A stretch of DNA of 46,575 nt from an uncultured Dehalococcoidales bacterium (GTDB lineage Bacteria; Chloroflexota; Dehalococcoidia; GIF9; AB-539-J10): positions 1 to 46,575 of the forward strand of contig CAYVCJ010000001.1 in NCBI GenBank assembly GCA_964450165.1, given 5' to 3'. Numbering within the stretch: the first letter of the stretch is position 1; the number at the start of each line of letters is the position of its first letter. This document shows, piece after piece, positions 437 to 36,426 of this stretch. Under the pieces are notes generated by a model, which had not been told where the DNA came from, searched no databases, and was given only the letters and a program-made list of their open reading frames with translations. Position numbers and translations under genes: made by a program.

Positions 437-1903
437 TCAAGAACCGTGAGGGGACAAATTTCTCCGATACTCAGCATACTCAGCTAATCTGGAAAGGACG
501 GCAGCAGCATGGTCGGGCAACGGATAAAGTGGGATTCCTTTCTGCACCGCAAGCTTGCTTACCTGAGCATCTATGTATCCGCTACCAAACTCTGAAGCGA
601 TAATAATTGGCTTACCATACTTAGCCACTAAAACTGCTAACTGTTCAAGCACCTCAGCCATGGTATCCGCGAATGCCTTGAGCTGTTCACGCAAGACTGA
701 GCTCTCACTGGATACCAATACTATGCTTCTTGGTAACATTGGTGATAAATTCAGCAACATCAGACCATCGATGGTGGCACAACGGAGCATAACCTCAATA
801 GATTTCATCACATCCTCCCCGAAAACCCCCGCCACCAAATCTACCGGGTTGCCTCGGCTCCACCAGGCAGGCAAGAGGCCATCCAATTCCTTTATAGTTT
901 CCTCAGGAAGCTGAGCCATACTAAGGCCAGCGTTGACACAGGCATCAGCACCAAGGACTCCCCAACCTCCACCAGCAGTCATTATTCCTACCCTTTTCCC
1001 CTGAGGCAGCGGTTGATGCAACAGGGCAGCGCCAACGTTGAATATCTCATCCATGTCCCGAACCCTTATGATCCCTGCTTGCTTGCAAACAGAGTTGAAA
1101 ATAGCATCAGAGCCTGCTAATGAAGCAGTATGTGATTTGGCTGCTTTAGCTCCCGCACTTGTATATCCTGCTTTAAGTGTCACGATGGGCTTTTTTTGAG
1201 TGACCTTCTTAGCTGTTTCAAAGAACTTTCTACCGTCTCTTAATCCTTCGATGTAGCTCAATATGACTTTAGTCTCAGTATCCTCAGCCAAATACTCAAG
1301 ATAATCTTCTAAATGCAAATCTGCTTCATTGCCATAGCTGATAAGTTTACTGATACCAAAACCCTTATTGCTTAATCTTTGGACGATGGAAAACCCGATA
1401 TTACCGCTTTGTGAGACTACAGCAAAGGGCCCCGGCTCAGGGAATAAAGGTGGCATGAGGGCAGACAAGCTACAAGCTGTGCTGATAATGCCAAAGCAAT
1501 TGGGTCCCACTAAAATCATCCCGCTCTTGTGAGCTATACGGACGACTTCCCTCTGCAATTTCGCTCCTTCAGTTCCTACCTCAGCAAAGCCAGCAGTAAT
1601 GATGACCGCAGCCTTGATTCCCTTCTCAGCGCATTCTTGCAAAACTTGTGGCACGCTGGAGGGAGGAATCACAAATATTGCAAGATCGGGAGTCTCAGGC
1701 AGAGCCTTGACACTGGAATATGCCTTGAAGCCCAGGATTTCTTTCTCTCTCGGATTTATCGGATACACCTTGCCTGTGAAGTGCCCGGTGATAATGTGAG
1801 ACAAGATAACAGACCCCCATTTATATGGATTTGCTGATGCTCCAATCAAAGTAAGGGACTTAGGATTGAAAAGGGGGTCAAATTTTTGAAGTATTTCAGA
1901 CAT
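437..1903 (-). CDS. acdA: ADP-forming acetyl-CoA synthetase (acetate--CoA ligase), alpha subunit: CoA-binding plus succinyl-CoA-synthetase-like domains
   Basis: 488-aa ORF. N-terminal NPKSLTLIGAS...GKVYPINP CoA-binding fold, ITAGFAE, LVGPNCFGI, and KSHTASLAGS (phosphohistidine loop). Confidence 0.8.
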   Translation of the reverse strand: MSEILQKFDPLFNPKSLTLIGASANPYKWGSVILSHIITGHFTGKVYPINPREKEILGFKAYSSVKALPETPDLAIFVIPPSSVPQVLQECAEKGIKAAVIITAGFAEVGTEGAKLQREVVRIAHKSGMILVGPNCFGIISTACSLSALMPPLFPEPGPFAVVSQSGNIGFSIVQRLSNKGFGISKLISYGNEADLHLEDYLEYLAEDTETKVILSYIEGLRDGRKFFETAKKVTQKKPIVTLKAGYTSAGAKAAKSHTASLAGSDAIFNSVCKQAGIIRVRDMDEIFNVGAALLHQPLPQGKRVGIMTAGGGWGVLGADACVNAGLSMAQLPEETIKELDGLLPAWWSRGNPVDLVAGVFGEDVMKSIEVMLRCATIDGLMLLNLSPMLPRSIVLVSSESSVLREQLKAFADTMAEVLEQLAVLVAKYGKPIIIASEFGSGYIDAQVSKLAVQKGIPLYPLPDHAAAVLSRLAEYAEYRRNLSPHGS

Positions 1904-2025
1904 GACCTCTCTATTACCAACTATCAGTGGCTACTATTTATCCAAACTTTTTGAGATTCTAGCATAGCCAACCGCTCATATTATTCCATTTGGGAAGTAC
2001 AGTCAATCGCAGCTTAGAAAACACC

Positions 2026-2054
2026 GTTGTTTTGCTCAACTAGCTTTGCTATGA
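2026..2054 (+). promoter_or_regulatory. Candidate sigma70-type promoter for the deacetylase gene
   Basis: TTGTTT (2026-2031), 17-nt spacer, TATGAT (2049-2054). A strong SD AAGAGGTGA lies 7 nt before ATG 2076. Confidence 0.3.
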
Positions 2055-2075
2055 TGCGATAAGAGGTGATTAATT

Positions 2076-3119
2076 ATGAAGGCAGGATTAGTATATGACC
2101 CAATTTACCTGGAGCATGATACTGGTGACCATGTGGAGAATTCGCAGCGGTTGGTATCCATAATGTCGCATTTGGAGGAGACCGGGATGAAAGAAAAGCT
2201 TATCTCGTTTTCTCCCCGTCTTGCCTCAATAGAGGAGGTAGAGATGGTGCATGCTCCGGAATATGTTTCCCACATCAAAAGCAAAGCTGAAAGCGGAGGC
2301 GGATGGCTTGACCCTGATACTGTAATGTGCCCAAGATCCTATGAGGTAGCGTTATATGCCGCTGGTGGAATGTTAACCGCTGTGGAAAAGGTGATGACAG
2401 GAGAAGTGGACTCTGCTTTCGCTCTCGTCAGGCCTCCGGGACACCATGCCACCTCCAATAGAGCAATGGGATTCTGCATTTTCAATAACATAGCTATTGG
2501 GGCTAAATTTGCCATAGCTAACTTCAATATTGAGCGCATTCTAATTGTTGATTTTGATGTTCACCATGGCAATGCAACTCAGGAGGCTTTTTACAATGAC
2601 TCCAAGGTCCTCTATTTCTCCACCCATCAATATCCCTTCTACCCCGGGACTGGCTGGCTGGATGAAACCGGAACCGGTCAAGGAAAAGGATATACCGTTA
2701 ATTTTCCCATGTCTGCTGGCTGGGGAGATGACGAATACCTCAGGGCTTTCAACGAAGTTTTGGTTCCCGCAGCTAGAAAATTCCAACCACAGCTTATCCT
2801 TGTTTCTGTTGGCTTTGACCCTCACTGGGCTGACAGTATAGCTATGATGCAGGTGAGCGTTTCTGGTTTTGCTCAGATTGTTAAGATGCTAAGGCAGCTA
2901 GCTGTCGAGTTATGTCAAGGACATCTTGCCCTTACTTTGGAGGGGGGCTACAACCTTGAAGTAGCTGCTTCAGGAACAAGAGCTATTTTCGATGTCCTTC
3001 TGGGCAATGCGGAGGTAGTTGACCCGTTAGGCAAAGCACCGGTCATAAGAAAAGCCGTTGGTTTTGAAGAACACCTTAAAAGAATAAAGGAAATACACCA
3101 TACAGAAAATCAGGATTAA
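2076..3119 (+). CDS. Histone deacetylase family protein (AcuC / acetylpolyamine amidohydrolase-like)
   Basis: 347 aa. Motifs RPPGHHA, DFDVHHGNATQ, FYPGTG and EGGY are HDAC class I/II zinc-site signatures. Confidence 0.85.
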   Translation: MKAGLVYDPIYLEHDTGDHVENSQRLVSIMSHLEETGMKEKLISFSPRLASIEEVEMVHAPEYVSHIKSKAESGGGWLDPDTVMCPRSYEVALYAAGGMLTAVEKVMTGEVDSAFALVRPPGHHATSNRAMGFCIFNNIAIGAKFAIANFNIERILIVDFDVHHGNATQEAFYNDSKVLYFSTHQYPFYPGTGWLDETGTGQGKGYTVNFPMSAGWGDDEYLRAFNEVLVPAARKFQPQLILVSVGFDPHWADSIAMMQVSVSGFAQIVKMLRQLAVELCQGHLALTLEGGYNLEVAASGTRAIFDVLLGNAEVVDPLGKAPVIRKAVGFEEHLKRIKEIHHTENQD

Positions 3120-30906: not shown

Positions 30907-31245
30907 TTAACTTTCCTCCTCTGCAATAAACACCGTAATATGGCTGGCTCGTTTTAAAATGGGGTTTACTCTCCCTCTCGCTTGTGGTCGAAATCTCTTC
31001 AAAGTATGCCCTTTATCACAAAAAATCTCACTAATCCTGAGGCCAGCAGGCGACATTTCAAAATTATTTTCAGCATTAGCTGCCGCTGATTTAATCACCT
31101 TGGCTACAGCCTTAGCTGCTGGAGTAGGTAGAAAACTAAGCATTGTTAATGCCTCATCAATTTTTCTACCTCCAACTATATCCGCCACTAAACGAACCTT
31201 TTGGGGTGAGATACCAACGTCTTTAGCTACCGCCTTTACCTTCAT
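30907..31245 (-). CDS. rplV: 50S ribosomal protein L22
   Basis: ISPQKVRLVADIVGGRKIDEAL. Confidence 0.95.
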   Translation of the reverse strand: MKVKAVAKDVGISPQKVRLVADIVGGRKIDEALTMLSFLPTPAAKAVAKVIKSAAANAENNFEMSPAGLRISEIFCDKGHTLKRFRPQARGRVNPILKRASHITVFIAEEES

Positions 31246-31249
31246 TCAG

Positions 31250-31537
31250 TTACTTCCTTGCCTGTACAGTTACTTTAGCCCTTGTAACATGCCCCCTAAA
31301 CGTTCTGGTAGGAGCAAATTCTGCCAACTTATGTCCAACCATACCTTCGGTAATAAAAATAGGTACGTGTCTTCGCCCATTATGAACAGCAATAGTGTGC
31401 CCTATCATTTGAGGAAGGACGGTGGAAGCACGAGCCCAAGTCTTTATTACCGTCTTCTCCCCCGAATTATTCAGCAACTCTATTTTCCTAAGCAATTTAG
31501 CATCGCAATAAGGACCTTTCTTACGTGACCTCGACAT
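31250..31537 (-). CDS. rpsS: 30S ribosomal protein S19
   Basis: [10 protein letters not shown] and [32 protein letters not shown]. Confidence 0.95.
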
Positions 31538-31538
31538 T

Positions 31539-32360
31539 TCACTTCCTTCGCTTAATAATCATTTTATCCGATTTCTTATTACGGCGTGTCTTTGGCCCCA
31601 GTGCCAGCTTTCCCCAAGGTGTTTTAGGAGGCATCCCTCGAGGGGTTCTACCCTCACCCCCTCCATGAGGATGATCTCTTGGAGTCATAGCAGAACCACG
31701 AACTGTAGGACGGAATCCCAACCACCTTCGACACCCTGCCTTACCCAGCACCAAATTCTCATGCTCAACGTTACCCACTTGTCCAACAGTAGCCCAACAC
31801 CTGTGATGAAATTTCCGTAATTCACCTGAGGGCAACCGAAGTGTGACATATTTATCTTCTTTGCTCAATATTTGAGCAGCAGTCCCGGCGCTGTGAACAA
31901 GCCCACCACCTCTACCAGGCTCAAATTCAATATTATGGACTGATGTGCCTGTAGGAATCAAACTAATAGGTAAGGCATTGCCAAGTCTTATGTCAACTTC
32001 TTCTCCCGCCTCCACAACATCTCCCACCTGAAGACCTAAGGGAGCGAGAATATAACGTTTTTCTCCATCAGCATAATAAATTAATGCGATCCGAGCTGAA
32101 CGATTAGGATCATATTCGATTGCAGCTACTTTACCAGGAACGCCAACTTTATCCCTCTTAAAATCGATGATTCTAAGCTTTCGTTTGGCCCCACCACCAC
32201 GGTGACGTACTGTTATTACACCGCGACTATTGCGTCCCCCTTTCTTCCTCAATGGTAACAGCAATGATTTTTCAGGAACTGTCTTAGTTATTTCCTCAAA
32301 ACTAGCTTTGACCATACTTCTCCGACCAGGAGAAGTTGGCTTGTAACTTTTTAATGCCAC
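31539..32360 (-). CDS. rplB: 50S ribosomal protein L2
   Basis: [14 protein letters not shown] and [13 protein letters not shown] start with GGAGG 6 nt upstream. Confidence 0.95.
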
Positions 32361-32380
32361 AAATTACCTCCAATTTATAT

Positions 32381-32476
32381 CTAGGGATGTTTCCTCATCC
32401 ATCGAGTTTTCTTAAGGAGCTTCCGATGATGATGTCTGGACATCTTCTTTTTTCTCCACTTTACTACCGAGCCCAC
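32381..32476 (-). CDS. bS22-like small basic ribosomal protein (AURKAIP1/COX24-type micro-ORF, 31 codons)
   Basis: Hand translation from GTG 32476 gives MGSVVKWRKKKMSRHHHRKLLKKTRWMRKHP, with TAG at 32383-32381. GGGAG lies 7 nt upstream. The ORF fills the otherwise unexplained 128-nt rplW-rplB gap. It resembles, from memory, mycobacterial bS22 [25 protein letters not shown]... Confidence 0.6.
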   Translation of the reverse strand: MGSVVKWRKKKMSRHHHRKLLKKTRWMRKHP

Positions 32477-32488
32477 GATTAACTCCCT

Positions 32489-32773
32489 TTAAACACCTTC
32501 AAAGAAACTGATCTTATCACCTGGTCCCAGAGTAATTACTGCCTTTTTCCATGGTGAACTTGTCACTTCTCTCTTGCCCATTCTCTTCGTCTTCCCAGGT
32601 GTGGTTATCACGTTTACTTTAGATACTTTTACTTTAAATGCCAGCTCAACTGCTTGTTTGATTTGAGCCTTATTAGTTTCTTTAGCCACTTCAAAGACGT
32701 ACTTCTTTCTCTCCTGCAGCAATGTAGCTTTCTCCGAGATTATGGGACGTCGTAAAACTTCATAAGGATGCAT
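32489..32773 (-). CDS. rplW: 50S ribosomal protein L23
   Basis: VLRRPIISEKATLL and KVSKVNVI. Confidence 0.95.
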   Translation of the reverse strand: MHPYEVLRRPIISEKATLLQERKKYVFEVAKETNKAQIKQAVELAFKVKVSKVNVITTPGKTKRMGKREVTSSPWKKAVITLGPGDKISFFEGV

Positions 32774-33407
32774 GCTTAATCACCTTTCTTCCCCAAATTT
32801 GCTCAATTTTATGTATTGCAGGAATGGTAACCATTAGCTCTTGATGGGAAAGCAAATCAGCTATATTAATCAAAGCCGAAGGCAAAACATCTACACTAGC
32901 CAAATTACTAGCTGACCTAACTACATTTGGAGTAGAATCAGCAGTGACAATTAACACTGAAGAATCGATCTCAAACGCCGACAAGATGTTAGTCATTTCC
33001 TTCGTTCCCGGCCTGTCAAAAGTAAACTTTTCCACTACCTTCATATTGCCCTCTCTGACTTTGGCAGAAAGAACACACTTTAGAGCTAGACGCCTCATTT
33101 TCTTAGGCATAGCCTGGTAATATGAGCGAGGGTGGGGCCCAAAAACTATTCCTCCCCCCACGAGAAGCGGTGACCTCAAAGTTCCTCTCCTTGCCCGTCC
33201 TGTATGTTTTTGGAAATAAGCTTTCCTCGTGCTTCCACGAACTGCCCTCCTTGTTTTCGTGGATGCAGTGCCTTGACGCTTATTGGCTAATTGCCTTACT
33301 AAAGCTTGATGAACTACCGCATCATTGAAAGGAAGGTCAAAAATATCATCGCTAACCTCTAGCTGTGTAACAACCTCACCAGATAAATTGTAAACCGAGA
33401 CTTGCAC
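32760..33407 (-). CDS. rplD: 50S ribosomal protein L4
   Basis: [21 protein letters not shown] and [10 protein letters not shown]. Confidence 0.95.
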
Positions 33408-34028
33408 TTACAACCTCCCTACTTTCTCAATAAACAGTAATCCCTTGTTAGCCCCAGGTACACCACCTTTTAACAAAAGCAGGTTGTGGTTGGAATCAAC
33501 TTCGATGACCTTGACATTAGGCAGAGTCACTTTCTTCGCTCCCATATGTCCAGCCATACGCTTCCCTTTAAACACCCTGCCTGGAAACGTAGTAGCACCA
33601 ATTGACCCTGGAGCCCGGTGACGGTCAGATTGGCCATGCGTTTTCGGTCCTCCGGCAAAATGATGACGTTTTACTACACCAGCAAAGCCCTTGCCTTTAG
33701 AGAAACCGCTTACATTTACTAAATCACCTTTATTCAGAAAACCGACGTCTATCCGCTGACCAGGCTGATATGAGCTAATATCATTGGTCTTGAATTCATG
33801 AAGATAATGAACTTTCTCTATACCTTTGAGGTGTCCAGATTGAGGCGAATTAAGATGGCTTGCTTTCCCAAAACCAAGCTGGATAGCATTATATCCATCT
33901 TTGCTCTCATCTTTCACCTGAATGACAAAACACGGACCAGCTTCGATAGCAGTCGCTACTATGGCTTCGCCACTCTCCAGAAAAACCTGCGTCATACCTA
34001 CTTTTTTGCCAATAATACCTTGAGCCAT
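33408..34028 (-). CDS. rplC: 50S ribosomal protein L3
   Basis: GIIGKKVGMTQVF and SKGKGFAGVVKRHHFAGGPKTHGQSDRHRAPGSIG. Confidence 0.95.
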   Translation of the reverse strand: MAQGIIGKKVGMTQVFLESGEAIVATAIEAGPCFVIQVKDESKDGYNAIQLGFGKASHLNSPQSGHLKGIEKVHYLHEFKTNDISSYQPGQRIDVGFLNKGDLVNVSGFSKGKGFAGVVKRHHFAGGPKTHGQSDRHRAPGSIGATTFPGRVFKGKRMAGHMGAKKVTLPNVKVIEVDSNHNLLLLKGGVPGANKGLLFIEKVGRL

Positions 34029-34035
34029 CGGTTTA

Positions 34036-34344
34036 TCACAATTTAATATCCACTTGCACTCCAGAGGGTAAGTTAAGTTGACTTAAAGCGTCTATAGTTT
34101 TAGAGCTAGGTTGTAGGATATCTATTAATCGCTTATGTGTGCGAATTTCAAATTGCTCCCTGGAATCTTTGTCAATATTTGGGGAGCGAATAACACAAAA
34201 CTTCTCTATTTTTGTAGGCAAAGGTATAGGACCAACAACTATAGCTCCAGTGCGTTCCACAGTATCCACTATCTGTTTTACCGACTGATCAACCAGTCTA
34301 TGGTCAAACCCTTTTATTTTAACCCGAACTTTCTGGTTGCTCAT
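34036..34344 (-). CDS. rpsJ: 30S ribosomal protein S10
   Basis: [24 protein letters not shown] and [14 protein letters not shown]. Confidence 0.95.
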
Positions 34345-36426
34345 CTATTTCACCGCCATTTCAGCCATATGCTGCCTGGCTAAATCGTCAGGTAATTCTT
34401 CGTAACGGCAAAACTCCATAGTGTAATTGGCTCTTCCCTGGCTAAGTGACCTTAAATCTCCCGCGAAACCGAAGGTTTCTGCTAAAGGAACATAGCAGCG
34501 AATGATGCAAAGTGTCTCGTGGGTCTCAATACTCTCAATATGAGCTCTTCTCGAATTCACATCACCCAAAATCTCCCCTAGAAATTGATCCGGGGTGAGT
34601 ATTCCTACCTTCATGATTGGTTCGAGCAGAATGGGCCTAGCCTTAGGTATACCGTTCTTCACCGCAATAGACGCTGCTACGTTAAAAGCTAAATCAGAAG
34701 AATCAACCTCATGGAAACTGCCATCACATAGAATCACTTTGATATCCACCACAGGATACCCAGATACTCCACTTTGTAAAGCTGCTCGACTACCTGCTTC
34801 TATAGCAGAAATGAATTCCCTAGGTATAACCCCACTTCGGATTTGATTAAAAAAGGCGAAACCACTACCTTTTTCACCTGGCTCTAGCCTGAGCCAAACG
34901 TGTCCATATTGCCCTTTACCACCAGATTGACGAATAAATCTCCCTTCCGATTCTACCGAGATGGTTATTGTTTCTTTGTAAGCTACTTGTGGCCTACCAA
35001 CGTTTACCTTTACTCCAAATTCACGAGAGGCACGCTCCGTGAGAACCTCAAGATGAAGCTCGCCCATGCCCGAGATAATAGTTTGACCGGTTTCTGAATC
35101 CTGGTAAAACTTAAACGTTGGATCTTCATCTGTGAGTTTGTTCAAGGTATCGTATAATTTATCCTGATCAGCTTTACTCTTAGGTTCAATTGCCATGGAA
35201 AGCACCGGCTCAGGAAAACGTATAGACTCAAGGAGCAAGGGAGAGGTAATATCACAAATAGTATCACCAGTGAACGTCTTCCTAAGTCCAACAACAGCTA
35301 TAATGGTGCCAGTGTCAGCTTCATCGATTTCCTCCCGCCGATTAGCATGCATAAGATACAGCTTTCCCATCCGTTCCCTCTCATCTCTAGTGGAGTTAAG
35401 AACCTGTGCCCCGGCTCTTACTCTTCCTGAGTACACACGGAGATAACTCAATCTGCCCATAAATGGGTCAGAGACTGTTTTAAAAACCAGCGATGCAAAA
35501 GGACCTTCATCGTTAGGCTGACAAGCAATTCTCGCCCCGTCACTAAGTCTCATTGCGGGGACGGGAGGAATATCCAGAGGCGAAGGGAGATAATCAGCAA
35601 CAGCATCAAGCAGAGGACGTATTCCTTTACCTCGCAAAGCACTACCACAAAGAACAGGAACTACTTGATTAGCTATGGTTGCCCTTCTTATAGCAGCCTT
35701 TAGTAATGAGACTGTAATATCTTGACCTTCGAGATACATTTGCATAATCTGATTATCACTTTCAGCTAACCTTTCAATTAATTTTTCACGGTACTCAGTC
35801 GCTATGGCTCTATCACTCTCCGGAATACTTTCCTTTACAGGCATTAAATCAGGATTGTCAGGAAAGGTGATAGCTTTATTCTCCACGAGGTCAATAACTC
35901 CCCGGAAGAGATTTTCAACCCCTAGAGGAAGCTCTATGGGCAATGGTTTAGCTTGAAGCCGCTCTTCTACCATCCTTACGACATGATAAAAGTCAGCACC
36001 GACTCTGTCCATCTTATTCAGAAAACAAAGCCTGGCTACATTATATCTATCCGCCTGACGCCACACTGTCTCCGATTGAGCCTCAACACCCGCTAAAGCA
36101 TCAAGTATCACGATGCCACCATCCAAGACACGGAGAGCACGTTCTACTTCAGCGGTGAAATCCACATGCCCGGGCGTATCAATGATGTTGATGCGATGCT
36201 CCCGCCAATAGCAAGTAGTGGCTGCCGAAGTAATGGTAATGCCACGCTCGCGCTCCTGTTGCATCCAATCCATAGCCGCAGTGCCTTCGTCCACCCCACC
36301 AATCTTGTAGGTACGCCCGGTATGGTAGAGTACCCTCTCTGTGGTGGTGGTTTTACCAGCGTCTATATGGGCGATAATCCCCATATTGCGTATCTTTTCT
36401 AAAGGAAAAGTTCGTGACACACCCAC
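34345..36426 (-). CDS. fusA: Elongation factor G
   Basis: 693 aa. IRNMGIIAHIDAGKTTTTERVLY, DTPGHVDF and NKMDR. Confidence 0.95.
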   Translation of the reverse strand: MGVSRTFPLEKIRNMGIIAHIDAGKTTTTERVLYHTGRTYKIGGVDEGTAAMDWMQQERERGITITSAATTCYWREHRINIIDTPGHVDFTAEVERALRVLDGGIVILDALAGVEAQSETVWRQADRYNVARLCFLNKMDRVGADFYHVVRMVEERLQAKPLPIELPLGVENLFRGVIDLVENKAITFPDNPDLMPVKESIPESDRAIATEYREKLIERLAESDNQIMQMYLEGQDITVSLLKAAIRRATIANQVVPVLCGSALRGKGIRPLLDAVADYLPSPLDIPPVPAMRLSDGARIACQPNDEGPFASLVFKTVSDPFMGRLSYLRVYSGRVRAGAQVLNSTRDERERMGKLYLMHANRREEIDEADTGTIIAVVGLRKTFTGDTICDITSPLLLESIRFPEPVLSMAIEPKSKADQDKLYDTLNKLTDEDPTFKFYQDSETGQTIISGMGELHLEVLTERASREFGVKVNVGRPQVAYKETITISVESEGRFIRQSGGKGQYGHVWLRLEPGEKGSGFAFFNQIRSGVIPREFISAIEAGSRAALQSGVSGYPVVDIKVILCDGSFHEVDSSDLAFNVAASIAVKNGIPKARPILLEPIMKVGILTPDQFLGEILGDVNSRRAHIESIETHETLCIIRCYVPLAETFGFAGDLRSLSQGRANYTMEFCRYEELPDDLARQHMAEMAVK

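Follow-up and report, generated by a model that had tools for sequence, protein, structure and literature searches.

The rplW-rplB gap

What lies between rplW and rplB in the S10 operon of an uncultured Dehalococcoidia bacterium, and, if it is a gene, to which family does it belong and how did it come to be there? The window analyzed here, a stretch of 46,575 nt, carries the genes rpsJ (34036-34344; Pfam S10), rplC (33408-34028; L3), rplD (32760-33407; L4), rplW (uL23; 32489..32773; PF00276, 105.5 bits), bS22 (32381..32476), rplB (uL2; 31539..32360; PF00181 and PF03947), rpsS (31250-31537; S19) and rplV (30907-31245; L22), tightly packed on the minus strand over 30907..34344. Within this array rplD and rplW share 14 nt (32760-32773), and upstream of it fusA (34345-36426, minus strand) abuts rpsJ directly at 34344/34345, with no tuf gene between them.

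The gap between rplW and rplB spans 128 nt (32361..32488), and both of its flanks are confirmed by Pfam (L23 and L2). Read along the minus strand, the rplW TAA is followed by AGGGAG, TTAATC, a GTG, 30 more codons, TAG, 20 nt containing GGAGG, and the rplB GTG. The open reading frame, GTG-GSVVKWRKKKMSRHHHRKLLKKTRWMRKHP-TAG, occupies 32476..32381 on the minus strand, from a GTG start at 32476-32474 to a TAG stop at 32383-32381, and its 31 codons translate as MGSVVKWRKKKMSRHHHRKLLKKTRWMRKHP. The feature was delimited from the ORF list, the sequence itself, profile matches, matches to PDB chains and pN/pS. Its product is a free-standing peptide with its own start and stop, extremely basic (K or R at 14 of 31 residues, H at four more) and within the length range of ~30-33 residues; intact, it would weigh ~3.9 kDa. 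A Shine-Dalgarno-like AGGGAG (32483..32488, minus strand) lies directly after the rplW TAA and is separated by 6 nt from the GTG, such that 12 nt intervene between the rplW stop and the start of the ORF; orthologues carry purine-rich GGAG or GAGG motifs at the equivalent place, consistent with a ribosome-binding function. The ORF ends 20 nt before the GTG of rplB, and this spacer holds a putative Shine-Dalgarno site for rplB, GGAGG (32367..32371, minus strand). The first-pass annotation had described just this anatomy, namely rplW and rplB 128 nt apart, a 31-codon GTG-to-TAG frame in the gap with its own Shine-Dalgarno motif right after the rplW stop, and an end 20 nt ahead of the rplB Shine-Dalgarno and GTG, and each element, including the peptide as given there, is present in the sequence.

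Other occupants of the gap were considered. A consensus scan of the minus strand in 32361-32488 returned no promoter-like or terminator-like sites, and no Rfam family matched the gap at threshold; the single match in permissive mode, to a snoRNA (12.5 bits, E 0.67), is noise, and a regulatory RNA was rejected. Also rejected was an antisense ORF of 48 aa (32336..32482, plus strand): no more than 12 of 28 orthologues keep its frame open, and it arises from the richness of the sense strand in Lys codons.

Family identity and purifying selection

The peptide scores 57.2 bits against the NCBIfam equivalog model NF047430 (ribo_bS22; cut-off 34, E 1.2e-15, model positions 1-30 of 31) and 26.8 bits against Pfam PF08213 (COX24_C; gathering threshold 23, E 4.8e-6, positions 1-29 of 33). 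As NF047430, run against all six frames of the entire 1.13-Mb assembly, returned this one match only (52.3 bits, E 9.8e-14), the ORF is far beyond chance. Among all PDB chains searched with phmmer, the peptide matched chain 8crx_X, the bS22 of Cutibacterium acnes, at E 4e-5, a group of Mycobacterium bS22 chains (5o5j, 5o61, 5zeb and others) at E 7.7e-5 and 6dzi_j at E 4.2e-4, with identity at 17 of 29 residues to the bS22 chains of the C. acnes and Mycobacterium ribosomes, and, over its residues 3-29, mS38 chains at E 0.004-0.03. The proposal that the ORF is bS22-like and of the AURKAIP1/COX24 (mS38) family, for which a profile search with PF08213 or a bS22 model had been suggested as a check, thus holds on both models and on the chains of solved ribosomes. 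By rplB, the closest named records are Dehalococcoidia MAGs (Chloroflexota), and we regard it as highly probable that this ORF encodes bS22, a small-subunit ribosomal protein of the AURKAIP1/COX24/mS38 family, in an uncultured member of the Dehalococcoidia.

Within this family the peptide is of the actinobacterial type. It shares extreme basicity and the motifs MGSV.K.R.K.M and HRKLL..TR with actinobacterial bS22 (M. smegmatis MSMEG_0945, M. tuberculosis and C. acnes; PDB 5o5j, 5o61, 8crx), but differs from it in length (31 vs 33 aa, the C-terminus being two residues shorter), in its GTG start, in Trp7 and in His in place of Lys16; further, the actinobacterial gene lies elsewhere, whereas that of the window lies inside the S10 operon. 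The bS22 proteins of Bacteroidota and Borrelia (Fjoh_1533, PDB 7JIL; bb0822) are likewise tiny basic helical peptides occupying the same 30S pocket (PMC7797042, PMC10618245), but are of a different sequence type, and among control genomes NF047430 detected Bacteroides thetaiotaomicron only at E<=1, below cut-off. The mitochondrial mS38 (AURKAIP1, or yeast Cox24) has the PF08213 domain in common with the window peptide but, unlike it, is ~200 aa long, carries the domain C-terminally and is imported into mitochondria. Both mS38 and cytosolic eL41 occupy an analogous position near h44 (PMC10618245, PMC10081302); eL41 is a single unbent helix.

The first-pass annotation had further suggested looking for the same conserved ORF in the spacer of related genomes and comparing synonymous with non-synonymous change, and both checks bore out its reading. 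Exactly one copy above cut-off was found in 40 of 41 related genomes (of the genus, family and order), and the gene order rplD-rplW-bS22-rplB-rpsS is retained in all 20 loci fetched from relatives. Across 23 distinct bS22 nucleotide sequences, pN/pS is 0.126 in the bS22 frame, as opposed to 2.3 and 2.0 in the two alternative frames; synonymous sites are almost saturated (pS 0.87), but non-synonymous sites are not (pN 0.11). Entropy summed by codon position is 34.5 at third positions, compared with 9.8 at first and 7.6 at second positions, and the sense frame is open in 28 of 28 S10-located orthologues. The ORF is therefore a protein-coding gene under strong purifying selection.

These patterns are difficult to reconcile with the suggestion that the spacer is open and Lys/Arg-rich merely through its purine richness, and that no protein is made from it. 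Although the frame comprises only 31 codons and begins with GTG, and although purine-rich spacers ahead of rplB readily yield K/R-rich frames (the degenerate frames of family f40, for example, score no better than shuffles), a chance frame would account neither for a profile E value of 1.2e-15, well over the curated cut-off, nor for low pN/pS confined to this frame, nor for the same peptide being encoded at unrelated loci of other Dehalococcoidia. The codon-position pattern effectively refutes it already, and we attach next to no credence to it.

The peptide is not uniform within its lineage. Trp is found at position 7 in all members of the window's family, f1 (the window; L013, L017-L021), and Lys in all others. 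Position 16 is His in the window and H, Q or R in f1, but Lys in the rest of the order; outside f1, it is Lys in nearly all Dehalococcoidia copies read, and Asn in family f37. The Lys16 of M. smegmatis bS22 contacts the backbone of h44 (PMC10081302), and its replacement by His in the window counts against a canonical role. One could therefore envisage a genuine bS22-family peptide that has drifted in f1 to a modified or additional role, with altered rRNA contacts or non-ribosomal binding of nucleic acid. The replacement, specific to f1, of two conserved basic residues (K7 by W; K16 by H, Q or R) and the score of the window (52-57 bits, at the low end of the 42-66 bits seen in the order) would fit such drift, but f1 retains the place in the S10 operon, the length and the HRKLL..TRW core, and purifying selection persists within the family, in that the window differs from L020 and L021 by ~5-6 non-synonymous changes over ~70 sites and by 5-5.5 synonymous changes over 16-17 sites. 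We consider drift of this kind improbable, and a conventional member of the bS22 family remains our preferred reading.

Position and history of bS22 in the class

The position of bS22 was compared with that of rplB, and with fetched loci, across 301 sampled Dehalococcoidia genomes, 88 of which (~29%) carry bS22 above cut-off; the corresponding figure for sampled Chloroflexota is 55 of 301 (18%). In 25 of the 88 bS22-bearing Dehalococcoidia genomes the gene is directly upstream of rplB, and in 57 it is separated from rplB by 60 kb or more, or lies on a different contig. The remaining six, the position of which was not checked, all belong to family f56, the four checked members of which have bS22 elsewhere. 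The window's order contributes 18 of these 25 S10-type genomes, every one of its members in the class sample (families f1-f3; f4 and f5 are represented in the loci fetched from relatives), and the others come from f14, f16, f22 and f44. The S10-operon position of bS22 is hence lineage-specific, being found in the whole order and a few neighboring families. Among 80 rplB loci across Chloroflexota, Bacillota and Actinomycetota, bS22 occupies the spacer only in five Dehalococcoidia loci. Spacers between rplW and rplB that hold bS22 measure 116-209 nt, as against 50 nt or less in 66 of 77 Dehalococcoidia loci lacking it. One rplB match (G051:C65:7081-7893) contains an in-frame TGA, which could denote a pseudogene, a sequencing error or recoding.

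Elsewhere in the class bS22 has other neighbors, some of which recur. Families f61 and f29 share the arrangement proB-bS22-proA, the flanking genes matching Pfam AA_kinase plus PUA and Aldedh, respectively; in L106, for example, proB (203-1360), bS22 (1501-1593) and proA (1814-3093) all lie on the plus strand, and bS22 is within or beside proline-biosynthesis genes also in L103-L105, L107, L108, L110, L111 and L121 of these two families. In family f70 (L109, L117, L122) it sits between holB, encoding the delta-prime subunit of DNA polymerase III, and a gene for a nitroreductase, all three in one orientation; the peptides of these three loci begin MSSV, not MGSV. None of S10, proA, proB or holB was found within 1.5 kb of bS22 in 23 loci from other Chloroflexota classes. 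A separate Chloroflexota match (G513:C1:17044-17130; L235) has a TAG inside its open frame, and here too a pseudogene, a sequencing error or recoding could be responsible.

This dispersal bears on the notion that the ORF is a leader or coupling peptide, the translation of which would itself tune rplB expression, the product having no ribosomal role. Small upstream ORFs are capable of such action, this one ends 20 nt upstream of rplB, and 18 of the 22 bS22 genes of the window's order start with TTG or GTG. Yet conservation extends to the amino acid sequence and is not limited to keeping the frame open; in 57 of the 88 genomes of the class that carry bS22, almost the same peptide is encoded away from rplB; a homologous protein is part of solved ribosome structures; and rplB has a GGAGG site of its own. 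A purely regulatory peptide is thus very improbable, and we retain the ribosomal protein as the better account. As to start codons, all six S10-located bS22 genes outside the order, and all 16 in other contexts, begin with ATG.

Whether bS22 entered the operon once or several times was approached with a tree of rplD, rplW, rplB and rpsS (111 rows, 671 columns, quick LG+G4 search). The window's order and f14 form one clade of 24 S10-type genomes (SH-aLRT 95); f16 and f22 fall in an adjacent unresolved fork with f13 and the group around f51, in which bS22 is elsewhere; and f44 is placed further off with weak support. At least three changes of bS22-position state are needed on this tree, and an AU test did not reject a single clade of all S10-type genomes (p 0.43). 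A speculative reading, less likely than not, is that bS22 entered the otherwise almost invariant S10 operon once, in a Dehalococcoidia ancestor of the order and of f14, f16, f22 and perhaps f44, and that this may have turned an accessory protein, located at other loci or missing in the remainder of the class, into a constitutively co-expressed core protein. On the same speculative footing, a later shift to TTG or GTG starts in the order might act as a throttle on translation, and the rplW-rplB junction might be a recurrent landing site in the class.

Several further observations concern this junction. In family f40, whose genomes have no bS22, the rplW-rplB spacer had seemed to hold a "relic" of the gene, with L168 reading MGSQVKRRVKKRSKN, but this candidate was dropped: its HMM E value is only 0.17, and when five spacers of this kind were aligned locally, as nucleotides, to intact genes, shuffles did as well (a fraction of 0.50-0.93 of them scored at least as high). 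In family f57 (L164, L175), likewise without bS22, rplW-rplB spacers of 448 and 424 nt hold an unrelated conserved ORF of ~130-140 aa, with motifs such as ...IHIREY..YYA.HWD..., a hydrophobic C-terminus and no Pfam match. Spacers of 94-163 nt without an ORF occur in L127, L132, L140 and L143 (f13, f64, f68 and f63, respectively) and in a Caldilineae MAG (L034); long inverted repeats are present there, such as GTCATTGCGAGCGAAGCGAAGCAATC...GATTGCCGCGCTTCGCTCGCAATGAC in L127, and resemble small palindromic repeat elements inserted at the rplW-rplB junction.

Putative role, annotation and significance

Given its strand, the 12-nt and 20-nt spacers on either side, and the lack of promoter-like or terminator-like signals between them, bS22 is likely to be co-transcribed with the S10 operon, and the anatomy of the locus suggests that it would be translated independently, from its own AGGGAG at the GTG start. 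Placement in the operon would couple its synthesis to that of core ribosomal proteins. To our knowledge, no ribosome structure exists for Chloroflexota. By homology with ribosomes solved from other phyla, the peptide, a strongly basic helix of 31 residues, would insert beside the decoding center into a pocket of 16S rRNA made up of h2, h27, h44 and h45 (PMC10618245, PMC7797042, PMC10081302), and may touch 23S rRNA at the subunit interface (PMC10618245, PMC7797042). Insertion into this pocket, together with contact to 23S rRNA, would make bS22 both a structural and a bridge element of the 30S subunit, and we infer that it is a component of the ribosomes of this lineage. About two thirds of sampled Dehalococcoidia are without a detectable copy, such that the protein appears dispensable for some closely related ribosomes; M. 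smegmatis tolerates deletion of bS22 (PMC10081302).

The exact window peptide, and that of its nearest relative, are absent from a collection of ~15 billion predicted proteins in which the orthologues of relatives are present. Being short and starting with GTG, the ORF is of a kind that gene callers skip, and the absence of the exact peptide is probably due to its GTG start. There is precedent in Borrelia, the bS22 gene of which has a GUG start and was missing from annotation for the same reasons (PMC10618245). Trypsin would destroy a peptide of this kind, as happened with that of Borrelia (PMC10618245). At NCBI, the name "AURKAIP1/COX24 domain-containing protein" is given to orthologues in related Dehalococcoidia MAGs (e.g., HUV46267.1, UCH51132.1), and in GCA_036382715.1, GCA_016875875.1 and the complete genome CP070642.1 the L23 and L2 genes flank a called 31-aa COX24_C gene. 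Such orthologues (HUV46267.1, UCH51132.1; CP070642.1) occupy the same place between L23 and L2, are 31 aa long and are 68-84% identical to the window peptide, but, unlike its exact sequence, have been called and named. Since same-position orthologues are already called and named in related MAGs, bS22 here is probably a local annotation gap, and not a new gene or family.

bS22 was first discovered in mycobacterial ribosome structures, and later in Flavobacterium johnsoniae and Borrelia burgdorferi (PMC10081302, PMC7797042, PMC10618245). A literature search for placement of bS22 in the S10 operon found no paper describing it, and matches in a search for bS22 in Chloroflex* were only unrelated uses of the string. 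The S10-operon position is lineage-specific, undescribed in the papers searched and already auto-annotated.

No new kind of biology is opened by this find; it identifies an apparently missed ribosomal protein gene of this genome that is worth annotating, and adds Chloroflexota to the phyla carrying bS22 of the actinobacterial type. More broadly, the S10 operon is highly conserved and seldom acquires an extra gene, as it has here, and related genomes, which variously carry bS22 within the operon, at another locus or nowhere, provide a natural contrast for addressing whether bS22 is an accessory or a core protein.
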